A stretch of DNA of 64,000 nt. Origin: Dictyostelium discoideum (Eukaryota). The DNA lies in NCBI GenBank assembly GCA_000004695.1, contig CM000153.2, positions 4,096,001 through 4,160,000 of the forward strand, in the 5' to 3' direction. Both the position numbers and the translations under genes were made by a program. Numbering within the stretch: position 1 is the first letter of the stretch; every line of letters begins with the position of its first letter. Under the pieces are notes generated by a model, which worked only from the letters and a program-made list of their open reading frames with translations, was not told the origin of the DNA and did not search any database. This document shows, in pieces, positions 9,304-40,835 of the stretch.

Positions 9304-10351
9304 ATGAATTGGAAATATATTTGTTTAATAAATGTTTTTATAAATTATATTATTCTATTATATTTAAATTTTCGACAAATAAAAACAATTAAAAATAGTA
9401 AAATACCTAAAGAATTTAAAAATCTTTCAATAATAAATAAATCTGAATTTTTAAATTTAAAACAATTAAAATATAATTTAAAGTTTGTATTTTTGTTTAT
9501 AAAAAAAAGTAATTTGAAAATTTATTAATAAAAGATTTTATTTTATAAAAAAAAAAAAAAAAAAAAAAAAAAGAATATTTAAATTTATATCAACATTATA
9601 TAGTTTTATTAGTTTATTAGTATTTATTCTTTATTTATACCCTTTACTTTGGAATTTTTCAAATAATTTATCATCTATTGATAATAACCCTTTAAAAGAT
9701 GAAGTAAGTTTTAAATTTAATTTTTTAATTTTTTTTTTTTTTTTTTATCATTTCTAATTATACTTTTTTTTCTTTTCAATTAAATCATTCTTTTATAGAT
9801 AGTTGCAACAATAGTTTTTTTTTCAATTAAATCATTTTTATCATTAATTTTAAATTTCCCAATTTCATATTATCAAACATTTGTTTTAACAGATGAATTT
9901 AATTCAAGGAATATTAAATTATTTCTACAAGATAAAGCTTTAAATGTTATTTTCTTAGTTATAATTTATATACCATTAGTAACATTATCAATAACAGTTA
10001 TTAGAACTATTGATTTTAGGTATTGTTGGGTTTGTAAGTTTAAAAAAAATAAAAAATAAAAAAAAAATAAAATAAAATTAAAAAAAAAAAAATAAAATAA
10101 AATAAAATAAAAAAAAAAAAAAAAAAAAAACTAATTAATAAATTGTCAATATAAAATTATATAGATTGTACAATAATTTATTTATTATATGAAATTTTTA
10201 TAGATATTTTATATCCATCTTTAATTAAACCAAATTTTTTACCAAATGAATTAATACCAATGCCAGATGGAATTTTAAGAAAATCAATTCTAGAATTATG
10301 TAAAAATTGGTATAAAAAATCAAATTCACCTTCAAAAATTAAAAATAATAA

Positions 10352-10397
<46 letters not shown>

Positions 10398-11075
10398 TTT
10401 AATTTTAATGGTAATGATAATGATAATGATACAGGTGAAGGATGTGATAAAATTAATAATGAAGAAAATCAAATTAAAATATTAATATTAATGGATTATA
10501 AAAATTTTGAAATTAATAATAATCAAGATGATAATCAACAACAACATTTGAATACATATTGTTCATTATTAAATAAGCATATTGTTATTAATGAAAATTT
10601 AATAAAACGATATGATAAAGAAGAGATATTATCAATGGTTGCTCATGAAATCGGTCATTATAAACAACTCGATCAATTGACTAATTTAGTTATACCAACT
10701 TTTAATACTGCCTTGTTTTTATACTTGTTGAATCATTTCATTCAAAATGATATGGCATTTGTCGATTTCGGGTTATCTACAGTATCGTTGTATATGGGTT
10801 TACTATTATTTAGTTTTATTTATTTACCAATGGATACGATTTTCAAATCATTGCAAAATCATTTCATTAGACAACAAGAATATCAAGCTGATTTATTCTC
10901 TCAAAATATAATGGGTTGTAATCAATTCGCTTCACTTTTAAAAATTATTACAAAAGAAAATAATCCAATTTCAATTGATGATTATTGGTATTCTTTATTT
11001 TTTAATCCATATCCAACTTTTTATCAAAGATTTAAATATTTAGAAAATAGTTTAAAAAATAAAAAAATTAATTAA
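9304..11075 (+). CDS. CAAX prenyl protease 1 (Ste24/ZMPSTE24, M48 zinc metalloprotease), four exons
   Basis: Exon 1 is 9304..~9508 (alternative end 9482) and reads YLNFRQIKTIKNSKIPKEFKNLSIINKSEFLNLKQLKYNLKF, matching the yeast Ste24 N-terminus. Exon 2 is ~9621..9703 (alternative start 9604/9613). Exon 3 is 9799..10033 (PISYYQTFVLTDEFNSRNIKLFLQD). Exon 4 is 10204..11075 with PMPDGILRKSILEL, the HEXXH motif VAHEIGHYKQ and a downstream EYQAD. Exon 1/2 boundaries are ambiguous; exons 3–4 are phase-checked. Confidence 0.75.
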
Positions 11076-11381: not shown

Positions 11382-14603
<3,222 letters not shown>

Positions 14604-26106: not shown

Positions 26107-26471
26107 TTAAACGTTTAATTTTATTCTTTTTTTTGATGAAGTTATAAGTGGTGATGTTGAACCTTTTGGAACAACCTGTTCATCTATAGCCTCATTTAAA
26201 AATGGGTTGATTAAATTATTATTATTATTATTATTGTTATTATTATTATTATTATTATTATTCTGGAAAATAATTATTTTTATAAATAATAAATATTAGT
26301 TTAGATTCAATTTTAATTTTTAATTTTTAATTTTTTTCCCAAATTTAAAAATTTACATACGTTTAAATTTAATGGTTGTATTATTGGCAAATTATTATTA
26401 TTTAAATTATTATTGTTTAAATTATTATTATTATTTATATTATTATTATTATTTATATTATTATTATTTGA

Positions 26472-26534
<63 letters not shown>

Positions 26535-26778
26535 TAAATTATTTAAATTATTGTTTAGATTATTATTACTATTTGCAACAGCCAGTCTCCTTAATAAATC
26601 TCTTTCATTTCTAGGAGTTGTTGGGTTTGATGTGGAATTATTAGGAGTATTTAAAGCACTCAAGGGCGGTGGTGGTTGAGGAAATTGCATTTGTGGTGCA
26701 ACCATAGGTGTTGTAGGAACACTAAATGAGTTTGGTGTCGAAAAATCGTTATTATTATTATTATTATTATTACTATTA

Positions 26779-26819
<41 letters not shown>

Positions 26820-27338
26820 TACATTGGTTTGTTGTTGCTGTGGTAGTTGATCAACTACACTATTATTATTATTTGAAATATCCACTCTAAGATGTGGATG
26901 TTGGTGGTGTTGTTGTTGACCATGATGATGTTGAGGTGAAAGAGTAATATTATTATTATTATTAGGTATTGTTGTAGTAGTTGTTGTTGTTGTTGTAGTT
27001 GTTGTTGTAGGTGGTAATGAGTTTATAGAGATAATTGTATTTGGAGTCATCATTGGTTGAAGTGGTGGAGTTGTAATGGTATTTGGATGATTTAATAGGA
27101 ATGCAGAAGGTTGTGGTTGTAATGGTTGTATTGGTTGATTTACAACTTGATTTTGGTGTTGTTGTTGAAGTTGTTGTTGCTGTTGTTGGAGTAATTGTAA
27201 TTGTTGTTGATGATGCATTTGAATTTGGTGTAATGATAACAAGGATGGAGATGATAGAGGAGATGGTGAGTTTGGATCATTAGGTGGTATTATAAATGGT
27301 GGTACAGTTTGATATTGTTGAGATAACATTGGTTTCAA
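26107..27338 (-). CDS. Q/N/T-rich low-complexity protein, at least two exons; 5' end uncertain
   Basis: The main exon is 27338..26361 (donor AAC|GTATGT). The last exon is 26262..26107 (acceptor CCAG|; ...LINPFLNEAIDEQVVPKGSTSPLITSSKKRIKLNV, stop). The frame stays open upstream of the ORF-track start (which is a TTG), so the true start or another exon lies above 27338. Confidence 0.45.
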
Positions 27339-30381: not shown

Positions 30382-30890
30382 TAAAAAAAGAAAAAAGTGT
30401 GGTTGGTGATACAAAAAAAATTTTTTTTTTTTTTTTTTTTTTTCTTTTTTTTTTTTTAATTTTTTTTTTTTTTTAATTATTTTTTTTTTATTTTTCCTAT
30501 CAGGTTTTTTTTTTTTTTTGGAATTTATTTATTTATTATTTATTACAAACCCCCATTCAAACCCCCAAAAAAAAAAAAAAAAAAATTGAAAAAAAAAAAA
30601 AAAAAAAAAACAGAATTTATTTGTTTAATTTCTCATACCACAATTTATCGTACTCTTTTTTTTTTTTTTTTTAATCATTATTTTACTTACATTTTTAAAT
30701 TATTAATCATTATTCTTTTAAAATTTTTTTTTAAATCAAAATTATTATAGAAAAGAAAATATTTTAATTTGATATTTTTTTAATTTCTTTTTTTAAACCC
30801 TATACAAATAAAAAATAAATAAAATAAAATTTATATATATATAAAATAAATAAAAAAAAAATAAAAAATAAAAAAAAAAAAATAAAAAAA

Positions 30891-32029
30891 ATGGAAGAAT
30901 GTTCTCAAATTTCAACAATACCAGATCAAGAATCAATTGATAAAGTTGTAACACAAATTTCACCTCATCAAAAAACAATGGATCCATCGTCAGTGGGGTT
31001 TGTATATCATTGGATGTTTTCAATGATGGCATCAGCTTTAAATTTCAATAAACCAACCCCTTTGCCAACCGATAATATTATATTGGACAACAATGAAAAG
31101 GATAATAGCGATGGTGAAAATTTCATCCGATCTTCATTGGGTAATATAAGACTCTCTGCAAGTAGCGAAGAACCTGAATCCGATCCATTTTATACAAATA
31201 ATCATCATGATAGCAGTGATGACGATAGTGATCAACAAAATCAAGATAAAGAAAACGATGAAATAGTAAATAGTAATAACAATAACAATAATATAAATCC
31301 TAATAAATGTACAAAAAAAGATGAAAATAATAACAATAGTATCAAAACAACACAACATATAAATCAAAATAACTTTTTAACTTTACCTTCTAGTACTACA
31401 AAGAAAACATTAATTTTAGATTTGGATGAAACTTTAGTTCATTCAACATTAAAACCAGTAACACATCATCAAATTACAGTTAAAGTTTTAATTGAAGATA
31501 TGGATTGTACATTTTATGTTATTAAAAGACCACATGTTGATTACTTTTTGGAAAAGGTTTCACAATGGTACGATATAGTAATTTTCACTGCCAGTATGCA
31601 ACAATATGCCGATCCATTACTCGATCAATTAGATACTCATAAAGTTTTCAAAAAAAGATTATTTAGAGATGTATGTATTAATTAATTATTTATTGTATTA
31701 AAAATGAATTTTATTTTAACTTTTTTTTTATTTTATTTTATTTTTTTTTTTTTTTTATTTTTTTTTATTTTTAGTCTTGTTTAGAAAAAGATGGAAATTT
31801 CGTAAAAGATTTATCAATGATTGATCAAGATTTAACTTCAACTATTATTATTGATAATTCACCAATTGCATACTCGAATAACCTTGAAAATGCTTTACCA
31901 ATTGATAATTGGATGGGTGATAATCCATCTGATACTTCTTTGTTATCATTGTTACCATTCTTGGAAATCATTAGACACGTTCAAGATGTTAGAAGTATCC
32001 TCTCTTTAAGGTTATTAAATTCTCAATAA
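30891..32029 (+). CDS. CTD small phosphatase-like protein (FCP1/SCP/NIF family, HAD fold), copy 1, two exons
   Basis: Exon 1 is 30891..31670 (donor AGAGAT|GTATGT). Exon 2 is 31775..32029 (acceptor TTTTAG|). The catalytic motif is LILDLDETLVHS (DxDx[T/V]). The sequence ...YVIKRPHVDYFLEKVSQWYDIVIFTASMQQYADPLLDQLD...RLFRD|SCLEKDGNFVKDLSMIDQDLTSTIIIDNSPIAYSNNLENALPIDNWMGD matches human CTDSP1 (LFRESCVFHRGNYVKDL...IIDNSP). Confidence 0.85.
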
Positions 32030-33789
32030 TTATTGATTAATTTTTAACAGTTTTTTTAAAAAGAAAATAAAAAAAAGGCATCAAAATAAAAAAATAAAAA
32101 TAAAAGTCGATGTTAAATAAAATAAAAAAAAGATATATCTCAGATGTGAAAATAAAAAAAAAAAAAAAAAAAAAAAAAAATTATTTTAATAATTTTTTTT
32201 ATAAAAAGTGGATAAATTTTTAATTAATTGAAATTATTTCCAACTTTATAACTGATTATTATTATAAACAATGAAAGAAATAAAATTTAAAGGAGGTTGG
32301 TTATTTATTATTATTTTTATTTATTTATTTTTTTTTTTTAAAAACAACTATATATTTGTTTAAATATATAACTAAAAATAGTTCAAAATGATAGTTTGAT
32401 TAATTCTATTTATATCATTTTTTTTTATGATTAAAAAAAAATTTAACATAATTTATAATAATATTATTGAAATATATTAAAATAATATACGAAAAAAAAA
32501 AAAAAAAAAAAAAAAATAATAAATAATAAAAAAAAAAAAAAATTAATTTAACACTATTATAACAACAACAAAAAAAAAAAAAAAAAAAAAAAACGGTTTA
32601 TTTCAAACAATTATTTCAACAATAATTAAATTAACCCAATCAACTGGTGGTTCATCAAATTATTTGGATTTTTAATTTTAATTAAATTTTTATTTTTTTT
32701 TTTATTTTTTTTTTTTTTAATTCAAATTGGATTTTCAAAATAAATTTAATTTTAATTTAATTTTATTTTTAAAACATTTCAATTTATTTATTTTTATAAA
32801 TTTATTTTCTTTGTTTATCTCACAAATATTTATAAAAAACAAAACCCAAAAAAAGTAAAAAATTTTAATAATTGTTTATTTCATTTTTTATTTTTAATTG
32901 TTTTTTTTTTTTTTTTTTATTTTAATTTTTTTTTTTTTTTTAATAAAATTATAAAACAGATTAATCTTTGTTCGTTGTTAGTTTTTTTTTTCCCAAAAAA
33001 AATTTTAAATTGCTAATTAAAATTTTTTATTCTTTCATTTTATTATTTTCAAAACAATTGTATACTAGTAATAATATTAATAATAATAATAACAACAACT
33101 ATATTTTTTTTATATTTTTTTCTCGACAATCTTAGATTTCAAATTTCCAATTATATTAAAATTAATTTAAAGCAATAATAATAGATCATTAATAATTTTA
33201 TTTTCTATTTGTTTGTTGATAATTATAAAAACAAATACACATAATAACCAATTATTTAAATTTAATATTTTTTTTTTAAAAAAAAAATAAAAAAAAAAAA
33301 AAAAAAACTTTTAAACAAATAAATTGTTGTTTTAATTTTATTAATATTAATAACATATTCATTAAAATAATAGCAAACAAATTTTATTTATTTATTTATT
33401 TATTTTTTTTTTTTTCATACCAACAACCAATTAACAACATTTTTTTAATTACCAAAGAGAAAATAAAATAATAATATACAAATATTTAAATAATAACAAA
33501 TATATATTTATCACACACAAACCAATATTTTTTTTTTTTTTAAAAAAATTTTTAATTTTTTAATTTAAATTACTACAATACATATCATTTTTTTTTTTTT
33601 TTTTTCATTTTTTTTTTTTTATTAACACACCACCCAGGTAATTATTTTTAGACACACTCATACAAATTCATTATAAATTACTATAAAAAAAATCAATAAT
33701 CTATACTTATTTATTGGTTATTTAGGCAAATTAATTAATTTAAACCTCTGGGGTTAATTTTTTTAAAAAAAAAAAAATTAAAAAAAACC

Positions 33790-33822
<33 letters not shown>

Positions 33823-34108
33823 AAAAAAAATTAAACCATTATTAATTAAATAATAAACAATAAATAAATAAATATAATAAAATAAATAATCAACCACAAT
33901 TTCAAACATTTTCATTTATTAAAAATTACAATAACTCTTATCTTTTTGTATAAAATTAAATAATTTAATAACTTAAAAATATATTTATAAATAAACAGAA
34001 TTCATATAAATAAATTATTTTAAATTAAATATAAATTAATAAATTAATTATTTTTTTATTTCAAAAAAAAAAAGAAATATTTAAAAATAATAATAATAAT
34101 TATAATAA

Positions 34109-35316
34109 ATGGATGAATGTACACAAATTTCAAATGTACCAGATCAAGAATCAATTGAAAAGGTTGTAACACAAATTTCACCTCATCAAAAAACAATGGA
34201 CCCATCTTCAGTGGGCTTTGTTTATCATTGGATGTTTTCAATGATGGCATCAGCATTAAACCTCAATAAATTACCAAACATAAATAATGAAAATAATTTA
34301 ATAATCGATAATAATAATAGTAATAGTATTAATAATAATAATATTTTAAAAAATAAAAAAATAAAATCAGAAAATGACAGTAATAATAATAATAATAATA
34401 TTAATGAAAATAGTACAAATAAAGATGGTGAAAGTTGCATTCAATCTTTAAATGAAATCATTTTATCATCACCAGAGTGTTCATCATCATCATCCTCCTC
34501 CTCATCATTATCATCATCATTAAATATTGAAGAATCCGAAAAAATTAAAAATTGTGTAGATGATTGTGACCATAATCAACATCAAAATGAAAAACAAGAA
34601 AAATGTATTAACCAAGATAATAATCAAAATAATAATAATAATAATACTAGTACAATTCAACATTTTAATGAAATTAACTCTTTAAATATTCAAAATTTAA
34701 ATCAACCAAAGAAAACATTAATTTTAGATTTGGATGAAACTTTAGTTCATTCAACATTAAAACCAGTAACACATCATCAAATTACAGTTAAAGTTTTAAT
34801 TGAAGATATGGATTGTACATTTTATGTTATTAAAAGACCACATGTTGATTACTTTTTGGAAAAGGTTTCACAATGGTACGATATAGTAATTTTCACTGCC
34901 AGTATGCAACAATATGCCGATCCATTACTCGATCAATTAGATACTCATAAAGTTTTCAAAAAAAGATTATTTAGAGATGTATGTATTAATTAATTATAAT
35001 TTTTTTTAAAAATGAATTTTATTTTAACTCTTTATTTTTTTATTTTTTTTATTTTTAGTCTTGTTTAGAAAAACATGGAAATTTCGTAAAAGATTTATCG
35101 ATGATTGATCAAGATTTAACTTCAACTATTATTATTGATAATTCACCAATTGCATACTCGAATAACCTTGAAAATGCTTTACCAATTGATAATTGGATGG
35201 GTGATAATCCATCTGATACTTCTTTGTTATCATTGTTACCATTCTTGGAAATGATTAGACATGTTCAAGATGTTAGAAGTATCCTCTCTTTGAGGTTAAT
35301 TAATAATATGCAATAA
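34109..35316 (+). CDS. CTD small phosphatase-like protein, copy 2 (tandem paralog of 30891–32029), two exons
   Basis: Exon 1 is 34109..34978 and exon 2 is 35059..35316, with the same architecture as copy 1. The first ~50 aa and the whole phosphatase domain are near-identical to copy 1 (one D/H difference in exon 2). The middle low-complexity region differs. Confidence 0.85.
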
Positions 35317-36916: not shown

Positions 36917-38165
36917 TTATTCTAAATCAGATTTAATAATATCTAATTTTGTAAATTGTTCAAAATATTTTTGAATTAAATTAATACCATGAGTGATATC
37001 AGCAACACCACAAGTTTCACGAATTGAATGCATTGATAATTGTGGATTACCAATATCTACAGTTCTAATACCATAAGTACCAGAAATGATTGGACCAATT
37101 GTTGAACCACATGGTGAATCATTTTTGACGAGGAATTCTTGAATTGGGATACCATTCTTTTTACAGATATCCAAGATAACAAAACTAGTTGGACCATTTG
37201 AAGCATAACGTAAATTTGCATTATATTTGATTACTGGACCTTTATTAAGAGCTGGTCTATGAAGTGGTTCATGATTTGCTGTGTAATTTGGATGAATAGC
37301 ATGTGCCATATCAGCAGAGATTAAGAAACTATTTCTTAAAGTTAAATCAATGAAATTGTTTAATTCATGTGGTTTACAAGTGGATGCAAACATTGAGCTA
37401 TTGACACGACTAATGGTATCATTGATCAATGGTGCACATGCACCTTGTGGTGAACTTGAGCCAACCTCTTCATTATCGAATAATATCACATTCAATACAT
37501 TCTCCTCTTGTGCCAATGTTGATTCTTTGACATTCAATAAACCAATCATTGCGCAATATGACATACCCAAATTATCACAACGTGGTGAGAAAATGAATTC
37601 ATCAAGTGCACCACCGATTGCAGCTGGTTGAGTATCGCAAACTGATAAATCAAAGTTTTGAATATCACCAACTGAACAACCCAATTCCTTACTTAACAAT
37701 TCCAAAAGTACTGCATGATGTTTAGTAGTACTTGAATTAACATCTTGTGGGTCACTTGTTTTTGGTGATTCAGTGGTGGTGGTGGTGGTGGTTGATTTAC
37801 TTTCTACTGGTTCTGATAATTTACTTGCAATCATTGGTACTAAATGATTTTGAGTATTATATTTAAATCCATCAGTGTTTACTGAACGATCGAGATGAAT
37901 TGCTAATGATGGAATTCTAAGAATTGGTTTCTTTATGTGAACTAATTTACTCTCATAACTACCATCACCTGATTTAACAATGACTCTACCTGCAACGGTT
38001 AAATCACGATCAAACCATGTATACCATAATCCACCACCATATGTTTCAACACCAACTTGTTGATATCCAACTGATTCAACTTTTGATACTGGTCTAACTT
38101 TAAAATTTGGACTATCAGTATGTGCTGCTGCAATATTAAAACCATTACCTGGTTTCTATTTATTA

Positions 38166-38222
<57 letters not shown>

Positions 38223-38488
38223 TTTATTTTTTTTTAAAATTTTTTTTTTTTTTTTAAAAAATAATTACATACATATTTACCACCAACTGCAAAAGCAGAA
38301 ATACATGATTGATTACGAGTAAAGAAATATTTTTTATTTGGTTGAATATCCCACATTTGTTTCTCTGATAAATGAATGAAACCTTTACTCTTTAAAATCT
38401 CTGAAAAGTATTGAACTGCATGATATGGTGATGGTGATTTATCAATAAATGAAATAAATTCCTTAGCTTGTGGTAAGTATTGTTCCAT
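36917..38488 (-). CDS. Aspartyl aminopeptidase (M18 family, DNPEP-like), two exons
   Basis: Exon 1 is 38488..38273 (MEQYLPQAKEFISFIDKSPSPYHAV...ISAFAVGGKY; donor TAT|GTATGT). Exon 2 is 38155..36917 (acceptor AAATAG|; KPGNGFNIAAAHTDSPNFKVRP...QQVGVETYGGGLWYTWFDRDLTVAGRVIVK...PILRIPSLAIHLDR...), matching human DNPEP. The ORF-track piece 36917..37834 is the tail of the same open frame. Confidence 0.85.
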
Positions 38489-39324: not shown

Positions 39325-40835
39325 ATGTATGAATTCTCTCTCTTTTTTTTTTTTTTTTTTTTTCATTTTTTTCAAAGTTTCTAATAAATTAACACTATAA
39401 TAATAATAATTATAATAATAATAATTATAATAATAATAATAATAATAATAATATAATAATAATAATAATAATAATTATAAAGGGATCCAATTAGTGAAAG
39501 ACAATCACTAATACCAAACTCTGGTAAGGGTAAAAATAGTGGTGGTATACCATCAGAACCAATATCAGCATCACAATCAACTAGATCATCAATTATTAAA
39601 TTATCATTAGTCAACATATCAGGTGGTTTAATTTTTGGATATAATACAGGTGTAATCTCACCAGTGTTAACATTGTTACCATTCACCAATTATACAGAGA
39701 TCAATCGTGGTTTACTAACATGTTCAATTTTAGTTGGTGCAATGATTGGTTCAATCGTTGGTGGTATCATTAGTGAAAGATTAGGTAGAAAATTATCAAT
39801 GCTAGTCATTTCAATCCTAACTCTCATCGGTACAATTGGTTCATCATTAGTACCACCAATGTGGTGGACTATGGCTTTTAGAGCTATCTTGGGTATTGGT
39901 GTTGGTATGTCTGCTATAGTTTGTCCAACTTATGTAGGTGAAATGTCACCAATGGAAAAAAAAGGAACATTAGGTACAATTTTTCAGGTATCTATTAAAA
40001 TTATATTATTTATTATTATTTTCATAACTATAATTTTATTAACCATATATATATTTTATATAATAGCTTGCAATTACATTTGGTATTTTCATAAGTAATG
40101 TATTTGGATTTGCACTTAAAAATGAAAAATATAATTTTAGAATATTGTTTGCAATTGGTGCAGCACCAGGAATATTCCTTTTAATTACATTCTTTTTCAT
40201 TCAAGAATCAACTAAATGGTTAAATAGAGTACAAGCAAAGAAATCAAATACAACTACTCTTTTAATTAATGTAATTATTTATTTATTATTTCCCCCTCTC
40301 CCTCCATCATTCTTTTTTTATATTTTTTTTTTATATAATTATTATTTTTTACTAATTTTTTATTATTTATAATTATTTTTTATAGCAAAAGAAAATTAAT
40401 AATAAAGTTGGAATTAAAGGTATTTTAACAAAACCAATTGGAAGATTTTCATTATTTATTGGTGTTATTTTAGCAGTTAATAATCAATTGACAGGTATAA
40501 ATGCATTTATGTTTTTCTCGCCATCAATTTTTGCAGCAGCTGGTATTAAGAATGGTAATGATCCAATGATTGCAACAATTTTATTGATGGCTTGGAATGT
40601 TGTTACAACTTTTATTGCAACTTTCTTAATCGATAGATTGGGTAGAAGAAAATTAATGTTGGTTGGTACATTGGTTATGACTTTATCTTGTATAGTATCT
40701 GCTATCTTAAATCTTACAATCAGTGGCACAACATTGGGTGTATTATCTGTAGTTTTCTTATTCATGTTTGTTGCAGCTTTTGAAGGTTCTGCAGGTCCAT
40801 TGGTAAGTCAAAAAAAAAAAAAAAAAAAAAATTTA

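Follow-up and report, generated by a model that had tools for sequence, protein, structure and literature searches.

How can two neighbouring genes have catalytic domains that are in part identical down to the nucleotide, and linkers that cannot be aligned as DNA? The question is raised by a tandem pair of putative phosphatase genes, here called A and B, in a 64,000-nucleotide (nt) stretch of Dictyostelium discoideum AX4 (GenBank assembly GCA_000004695.1, contig CM000153.2, positions 4,096,001 to 4,160,000 of the forward strand; ~20% G+C). This whole stretch is the window, and coordinates refer to it unless another locus is named. Both genes lie on the forward strand with start codons 3218 nt apart, as an earlier note made from the letters alone had observed (same strand, ~3.2 kb). 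We put a probability of roughly 90% on the following answer: A and B arose by an old tandem duplication of a Dullard/Nem1-like phosphatase gene, and their NIF domains have repeatedly been overwritten by interlocus gene conversion. The gene models are these:

30891-32029, forward strand: gene A (Q54M73 / XP_637875.1), 344 amino acids (aa)
30891-31670, forward strand: exon 1 of gene A, with the N-terminal block, the linker and the first 91 NIF codons (gene model)
31671-31774, forward strand: intron of gene A, 104 nt, GTATGT...TTTAG, phase 0
31775-32029, forward strand: exon 2 of gene A including the stop codon (gene model)
34109-35316, forward strand: gene B (Q54M72 / XP_637876.1), 375 aa
34109-34978, forward strand: exon 1 of gene B (gene model)
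34979-35058, forward strand: intron of gene B, 80 nt
35059-35316, forward strand: exon 2 of gene B including the stop codon (gene model)

The spliced translations match XP_637875.1 and XP_637876.1 exactly, and every dictyostelid orthologue that we modelled has its phase-0 intron at the same position. Q54M73 and Q54M72 are both annotated as "dullard-like phosphatase domain containing protein"; database records of the exact proteins come from genome assemblies only.

Because the similarity between the genes changes abruptly along their length, we divided them into the following segments:

31399-31689, forward strand: A copy of a 291-nt exactly identical block, the longest exact match
34707-34997, forward strand: B copy of this 291-nt block, the longest exact match
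31399-32018, forward strand: the whole A/B homology zone on the A side (NIF domain with intron; 34707-35303 in B), delimited by BLASTN, site patterns and trees
30891-31052, forward strand: N-terminal conserved block of A, 54 codons, unconverted (34109-34270 in B)
31053-31398, forward strand: linker of A, predicted to be disordered (predicted local distance difference test, pLDDT, <50) and conserved between species
34271-34706, forward strand: linker of B, fast-evolving, with poly-Asn and poly-Ser tracts of variable length

A general repeat finder was swamped by poly-A/T and listed the duplicate as families D15, D16 and D19; BLASTN, which the earlier note had proposed, and direct comparison were used. 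That note had seen about 450 nt of identity covering the catalytic domain, the start of the intron and most of exon 2. Exact identity does take in the start of the intron, with no mismatch in 291 nt (272 nt of exon 1, from the KKTLILDLDE codons, plus the first 19 nt of the intron), yet the introns differ further on, by a substitution cluster and T-run indels (104 versus 80 nt), and exon 2 has 7 mismatches in 246 nt (97% identity). These include Asp/His and Ile/Met replacements ahead of the tail, and the last four to five codons differ. The first ~50 residues, described as near-identical, are so in the protein (48 of 54 residues), the DNA being 90.7% identical (15 of 162 nt mismatched) with longest exact matches now of ~38 nt. 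The linkers, read as completely diverged, are indeed unalignable as DNA but retain common protein islands, DGExxIxSLxxIxLS and TxQHxNxxNxL...KK. BLASTN also reported similarity upstream of the start codons (30806-30890 versus 34027-34108, 84%), which we rejected as AT-rich low complexity; the orthologues show distinct A-type and B-type promoters.

The segments differ by more than chance would allow. Mismatches number 0 of 291 in the identical block against 15 of 162 in the N-terminal block (Fisher p = 1.3e-7), and synonymous differences 0 of 52 sites against 8 of 31 (p = 2e-4). Given 22 differences over 680 nt, an identical run of at least 272 nt has a probability of 2e-4 by run-length permutation. 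Within the window, synonymous divergence (dS) between the two genes is accordingly uneven, at 0.33 in the N-terminus, 0.00 in the catalytic part of exon 1 and 0.07 in exon 2. In the N-terminal block non-synonymous divergence (dN) is 0.05, and the resulting dN/dS of ~0.16 indicates that the block is kept similar by purifying selection and not by conversion. More broadly, dN lies far below dS in every conserved segment of both genes, and both are under purifying selection overall.

In a genome of 20% GC, identical repeats separated by 3.3 kb are a well-known cause of error, and an assembler or a polishing step might have duplicated one gene or homogenised two copies. We give this negligible weight: each copy has its own N-terminus, linker, intron, tail and flanks, two more D. 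discoideum assemblies hold both copies with small copy-specific differences in the exon-1 part (such as T/S at Thr191 and H/N at His193), and the same arrangement is found in three other species from other projects.

To date the duplication, we compared the loci of the closest homologues in D. firmibasis, D. citrinum, D. dimigraforme and the two further D. discoideum assemblies. A is followed by B in tandem in all of them (three D. discoideum assemblies, D. citrinum, D. dimigraforme and D. firmibasis), and every such locus continues downstream with the same prefoldin, M18 peptidase and sugar transporter genes as the window. Both flanks, 5' and 3', can be sorted into A-type and B-type sequence; either type is conserved between species, and A and B flanks resemble each other in nothing but low complexity. 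In the N-terminal block, dS between A and B is 0.32-0.44 across the genomes, as large as between species (orthologue dS between the four species is ~0.2-0.55). A neighbour-joining (NJ) tree of this block groups the sequences by paralogue, with 84% bootstrap for the A clade and 0-9% for clades of A and B from the same species. The linkers too have histories of their own. That of A, which had been taken for low-complexity spacer, is well conserved between the four species (omega 0.07-0.17) and so does not behave as a free-running one; that of B evolves faster (omega 0.31-0.56) and undergoes large poly-Asn/poly-Ser length changes, yet keeps B-specific islands in all four species. Because of these flanks, linkers, N-terminal dS values and the N-terminal tree, we conclude that the whole-gene duplication is, on sequence grounds, older than the radiation of D. 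discoideum, D. citrinum, D. dimigraforme and D. firmibasis.

This leaves little room for the recent duplication that the earlier note had also considered, in which a young identical 3' half would sit beside a linker driven apart quickly by slippage of its repeats. Such an event could leave a perfect match of 291 nt, 97% identity in exon 2 and the poly-Asn/poly-Ser tracts of the B linker, which vary even between strains. However, B has its B-type N-terminus, linker islands and flanks in four species, the N-terminal dS of 0.33 is as large as that between species, the flanks lack A-B homology, and species-specific changes are common to both copies, which one old duplication without conversion cannot yield. 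We consider a recent duplication very improbable.

Some further features of the linker and of the orthologues came out of the same comparison. The B linker of D. firmibasis (~12850-13060 of its locus) and D. citrinum (~13100-13300) contains a run of roughly 55-65 Asn that the B linkers of D. discoideum and D. dimigraforme lack, and the poly-Ser run of the B linker (window ~34475-34520) varies in length among three D. discoideum strains. D. purpureum has one copy in a different neighbourhood, with no second D. purpureum protein among the best matches. This orthologue (885-2017 of its locus) adjoins a VPS13 gene instead of the prefoldin and M18 peptidase genes, so in the D. discoideum group the locus was not only duplicated but also rearranged. 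Our splice model of it gives 353 aa against 342 aa annotated, the exon-1 structure differing in one of the two. In D. firmibasis, D. citrinum and D. dimigraforme the B orthologue is a called gene with a full NIF domain; these three are missing from the protein-search matches and have no Pfam record, and searches relying on that protein index would therefore miss them.

The catalytic parts behave otherwise. In the final 270 nt of exon 1, the two copies of one genome differ at 0, 1 and 2 nt in the three D. discoideum strains, 0 in D. citrinum, 1 in D. firmibasis and 10 in D. dimigraforme, against 11-21 nt between copies from different species. We called a site concerted when A equals B in every species and the species differ, and paralogue-fixed when the difference is fixed between A and B. 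The catalytic part of exon 1 has 18 concerted and 0 paralogue-fixed sites and exon 2 has 19 and 3, whereas the N-terminus has 2 and 5. NJ trees of the catalytic segments correspondingly group A with B of the same species, with bootstrap values of 77-100% (exon-1 part) and 73-92% (exon 2). Gene conversion, as the earlier note had suggested, explains the identical catalytic part. Its proposed restriction to the conserved parts holds for the catalytic domain only; the N-terminal block, itself conserved, gives no sign of concerted evolution and groups by paralogue (the A clade above).

Exchange is evidently ongoing within D. discoideum, because strain-specific alleles are common to both copies: AX4 carries A at column 51 and T at column 138 of the exon-1 part, in either copy, and the corresponding alleles in two other strains are G and C, again in either copy. 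This within-species comparison covers three D. discoideum strains only, and by it conversion appears to be still active in the species. A GC-biased footprint of conversion was not seen, third-position GC (GC3) of the converted exons being 0.16-0.27 and not above that of the N-terminus. Both concerted N-terminal sites (columns 69 and 96) are D. citrinum-specific states found in its A and B, which hints at one short conversion patch in the N-terminus of that species:

10069-10102 and 12991-13024 of the D. citrinum locus: region of the concerted N-terminal sites (N-terminal columns 69-102)

Identity could also be kept without transfer by selection on the nucleotides themselves, for instance on an RNA or regulatory element within the sequence or, in an extreme form, on codons, and the identical block does coincide with the most conserved protein domain. 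Between orthologues, however, the final 270 nt of exon 1 show 9-14 synonymous differences (dS 0.2-0.33), so synonymous sites are free to change, and for this reason we favour repeated transfer between A and B. Moreover, identity runs 19 nt into the intron, the block has no Rfam family match, and its GC3 is the same as in the rest of the gene. Nucleotide-level selection is thus an exceedingly improbable explanation.

The limits of the homogenised zone are sharp on one side and gradual on the other. Its 5' edge falls on the same nucleotide (31399/34707) in all four species, exactly where linker homology ends. Towards the 3' end, concerted sites become rare past about column 183 of exon 2, and the tail and 3' flank are paralogue-specific. 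The introns are alike only in D. discoideum (7-9 differences in 65-80 aligned nt), all other comparisons being ~30-40% divergent. In D. firmibasis both introns begin with GTAGGT (10793-10798 and 13653-13658 of its locus), against GTATGT in all other copies; the presence of this donor variant in both copies implies that it was co-converted with exon 1, a few nt into the intron.

This anatomy also bears on unequal crossing-over, in which the array would have cycled through three-copy or one-copy states without any non-reciprocal conversion. Direct tandem repeats 3.2 kb apart can misalign, and a crossover within the catalytic part would transfer the sequence downstream of it as well. Yet exactly two copies, A then B, are present in all seven genomes examined, the 3' tails and flanks have remained paralogue-specific although a crossover inside the domain would have swapped them, and the tracts are internal patches, the signature of conversion. 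We hold crossing-over to be improbable, if a little less so than the other alternatives.

Taking conversion as the favoured reading, the history of the locus would run as follows. A whole-gene tandem duplication would have preceded the split of the four species, after which the N-terminal block, linker and flanks of each copy would have evolved independently, A under strong constraint and the linker of B faster. The NIF domain would then have been overwritten between the copies, repeatedly and independently in each species, by interlocus (ectopic) conversion. Its tracts would be limited to the ~0.6 kb over which the copies remain similar enough to pair, starting exactly at the KKTLILDLDE codons, where linker homology ends, and fading over the 50-60 nt before the end of the coding sequence. 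Exon-1 tracts would usually be kept apart from exon-2 tracts by the diverged intron, and one D. discoideum event would have run through it. The 291 nt of perfect identity would be what the most recent event in the AX4 lineage left behind. As to the molecular route, we infer repair of a break from the paralogous copy, 3.2 kb distant, and a lower limit on the length of good homology that such repair needs. Recombination has minimal homology requirements. The N-terminal block may have escaped conversion because its exact matches, ~38 nt at most, fall below them.

One codon inside the converted zone appears to have resisted:

31790-31792, forward strand: codon GAT, Asp266 of A, the only fixed A/B difference inside the converted zone
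35074-35076, forward strand: His296 codon (CAT) of B, at the position of Asp266 in A; D. citrinum has TAT (Tyr) here

At exon-2 column 16, every A copy of the four species has G and every B copy has C or T. The next variable site, 5 nt off, is concerted in all four, and in D. discoideum the intron and exon-2 column 3, on the other side, are homogenised too. The position is D, E or N in 42 of 47 homologues, with His only in gene B; it adjoins an invariant Gly and lies 5 residues before the invariant catalytic Lys. The pattern suggests selection against conversion at the Asp266/His296 codon and hence some functional divergence of B, although tract ends beside the diverged intron could mimic such resistance in three of the four species. 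B also has a Met in the helix predicted to bind Spo7, a C-terminal tail unlike that of A and its own fast-evolving linker. Tentatively, and with more doubt than confidence, we raise the possibility that B is a specialised second Nem1/Dullard-like phosphatase in which selection holds a few B-specific residues against conversion. If so, the two proteins would differ in substrate, partner or regulation, with a catalytic core that is in effect one sequence in two genes.

To which phosphatases do A and B belong? Each has one full NIF domain (PF03031, E ~1e-57, profile positions 1-160 of 160), scoring 192.3 bits in A and 190.1 bits in B against a Pfam gathering cut-off of 21.8. NIF is the only Pfam domain in either protein, and no BRCT domain was found. 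The catalytic motif was read from the sequence:

31419-31433, forward strand: catalytic DLDET motif (DxDx(T/V)) of A (34727-34741 in B)

It occupies residues 177-181 in A and 207-211 in B, and D177, D179 and T181 are invariant in 47 homologues. The earlier note had spoken of FCP1/SCP-type phosphatases. The superfamily holds; the SCP half of that label is borne out by TIGR02251 (SCP/Dullard), at 211 and 211.9 bits against a cut-off of 139.15, and the FCP1 half is not, TIGR02250 (FCP1_euk) giving 45.1 and 39.5 bits, below its cut-off of 135.25. Because the first model is above its cut-off and the second below, A and B are, by profile, SCP/Dullard-type and not FCP1-type. Among solved structures, sequence search ranks human CTDNEP1 first (8ujl, E 6.5e-48), then SCP1, only 6 bits apart. 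An AlphaFold (AF2) model built from the 47 homologues has pLDDT >90 over residues 172-344 and shows a HAD-like Rossmann fold with an SCP-type insertion. Foldseek places it nearest to CTDNEP1 (E 3e-23 to 8ujl), followed by SCP1-3, with a template-modelling (TM) score of 0.89-0.90 on SCP1, Fcp1 being distant. The best named database matches outside the dictyostelids are all Nem1/CTDNEP1.

Further support for a Nem1-like identity comes from the C-terminus. Spo7 binding by Nem1 needs the hydrophobic residues L414, L415, L417, L418, L421, V430, L434 and L436 (PMC11665475). A matches these positions 8/8 in spacing and type (L316, L317, L319, L320, L323, V332, L336 and L338), and B has the same 8/8 pattern, compared with 7/8 in human CTDNEP1 and 5/8 in SCP1. 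At the other end, CTDNEP1 attaches to membranes by an amphipathic helix at its N-terminus (PMC11145253) and Nem1 has transmembrane regions (PMC11665475); A and B contain the hydrophobic motif VGFVYHWMFSMMASAL, kept in all dictyostelid orthologues. A and B are therefore likely to be Nem1/CTDNEP1 (Dullard)-like. Each would be a Mg-dependent Ser/Thr phosphatase at the endoplasmic reticulum (ER) or nuclear envelope, acting probably on lipin. No gene for the Spo7/NEP1R1 partner lies in the window. In the literature searched we found nothing on the two accessions or on any Dictyostelium Dullard/Nem1/CTDNEP1 homologue.

Set beside the known families, A and B resemble CTDNEP1/Nem1, the catalytic subunit of the lipin (Pah1) phosphatase complex of the ER and nuclear envelope, in the NIF/HAD-like domain with DLDET and in the hydrophobic N-terminal helix, predicted in A and B with low confidence, ahead of it. 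They differ in having two tandem paralogues instead of one gene, in lacking the 8-residue insertion that follows DLDETLIHS in CTDNEP1, and in a 120-150-residue predicted-disordered linker between helix and domain, which lie close together in CTDNEP1. SCP1-3 (CTDSP1, CTDSP2 and CTDSPL) are alike in sequence (47.6% identity, one gap position), TIGR02251 membership and fold (TM 0.89-0.90 on the target), but have no N-terminal hydrophobic helix and match only five of the eight Nem1 C-terminal positions; no SCP-named protein is among the best 120 database matches of A and B. With FCP1, the TFIIF-associated CTD phosphatase, they have the PF03031 superfamily and DxDxT chemistry in common, and part company in identity (16% to Fcp1 structures), in the absence of a BRCT domain and in scoring below the FCP1_euk cut-off.

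Several points weigh against our reading of the locus, or against parts of it. Conversion is deduced from sequence patterns, the events themselves being unseen, and unequal crossing-over followed by a return to two copies could give similar patterns. The intron is homogenised only in D. discoideum, so that several short tracts are needed elsewhere, and in D. dimigraforme A and B differ by 10 nt in each exon part, so that homogenisation there is older or partial. On the family assignment, identity to human CTDNEP1 (48.0%) and to SCP1 (47.6%) is uninformative for Dullard versus SCP. The helix predicted at VGFVYHWMFSMMASAL (aa 36-49; 30996-31037 in A) has a pLDDT of only ~50-56 and, though the protein's most hydrophobic 18-mer, has a hydrophobic moment of ~0.21 and is not clearly amphipathic.

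The surroundings of the pair add some observations of their own. Between the genes lies a spacer:

32030-34108, no strand: A-B intergenic spacer, 2.08 kb, AT-rich

It contains no open reading frame (ORF) of at least 70 aa; scans for tRNAs and Rfam families came back empty, here and over the whole window, and BLASTN of gene A against the whole window returned A and B only, with no third copy. The 3' flank of A, itself AT-rich, has two G/C-containing motifs at 32077-32118, GGCATCAAAA and GTCGATGTTAAAT, kept in the same order in D. discoideum, D. citrinum and D. firmibasis (three species compared) and without counterpart at gene B. They may be a 3' untranslated region or termination element of gene A. 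Downstream of B the window holds prefoldin, M18 aminopeptidase and sugar transporter genes. The M18 aspartyl-aminopeptidase gene (36917-38488, reverse strand) has at least one intron, the N- and C-terminal parts of Peptidase_M18 lying in separate ORFs, and a sugar/MFS transporter gene follows (39664-40098, forward strand); the order of peptidase and transporter is kept in all D. discoideum-group genomes examined. Upstream of A, a 341-aa ORF very rich in Gln/Asn runs and without Pfam match (26313-27338, reverse strand) corresponds in position to an unannotated ~400-aa protein upstream of A in other species.

Concerted evolution of tandem duplicates by interlocus conversion is familiar from the primate gamma-globin and red/green opsin genes. 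As in such known cases, paralogues A and B are closer within species than orthologues between species, the tracts are mosaic with sharp edges where homology ends and paralogue-specific flanks, and a single functionally suspicious codon escapes homogenisation. There is no difference in kind; what sets A and B apart is a 20% GC amoebozoan genome and tract limits that coincide with a protein-domain boundary and an intron. Interlocus gene conversion is also the subject of a survey of Drosophila duplicates (PMC2588116), and in the literature on gene conversion in Dictyostelium we found none treating these two genes. The pair is a further tidy example of a known process in two already annotated genes, and no general principle is changed.

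For work on these genes, it would be a mistake to take the near-identity of Q54M73 and Q54M72 for the mark of a young duplicate, and trees built from the NIF domain only will wrongly show independent duplications in each Dictyostelium species. In a knock-out design, a single guide or homology arm placed in the catalytic part will target A and B together, and the common catalytic core affects the assignment of RNA-seq reads between A and B. The locus offers a compact, well-bounded example of domain-limited conversion in a very AT-rich genome, and it gives the D. discoideum group two likely Nem1/Dullard-like phosphatases with a common catalytic core and different linkers.

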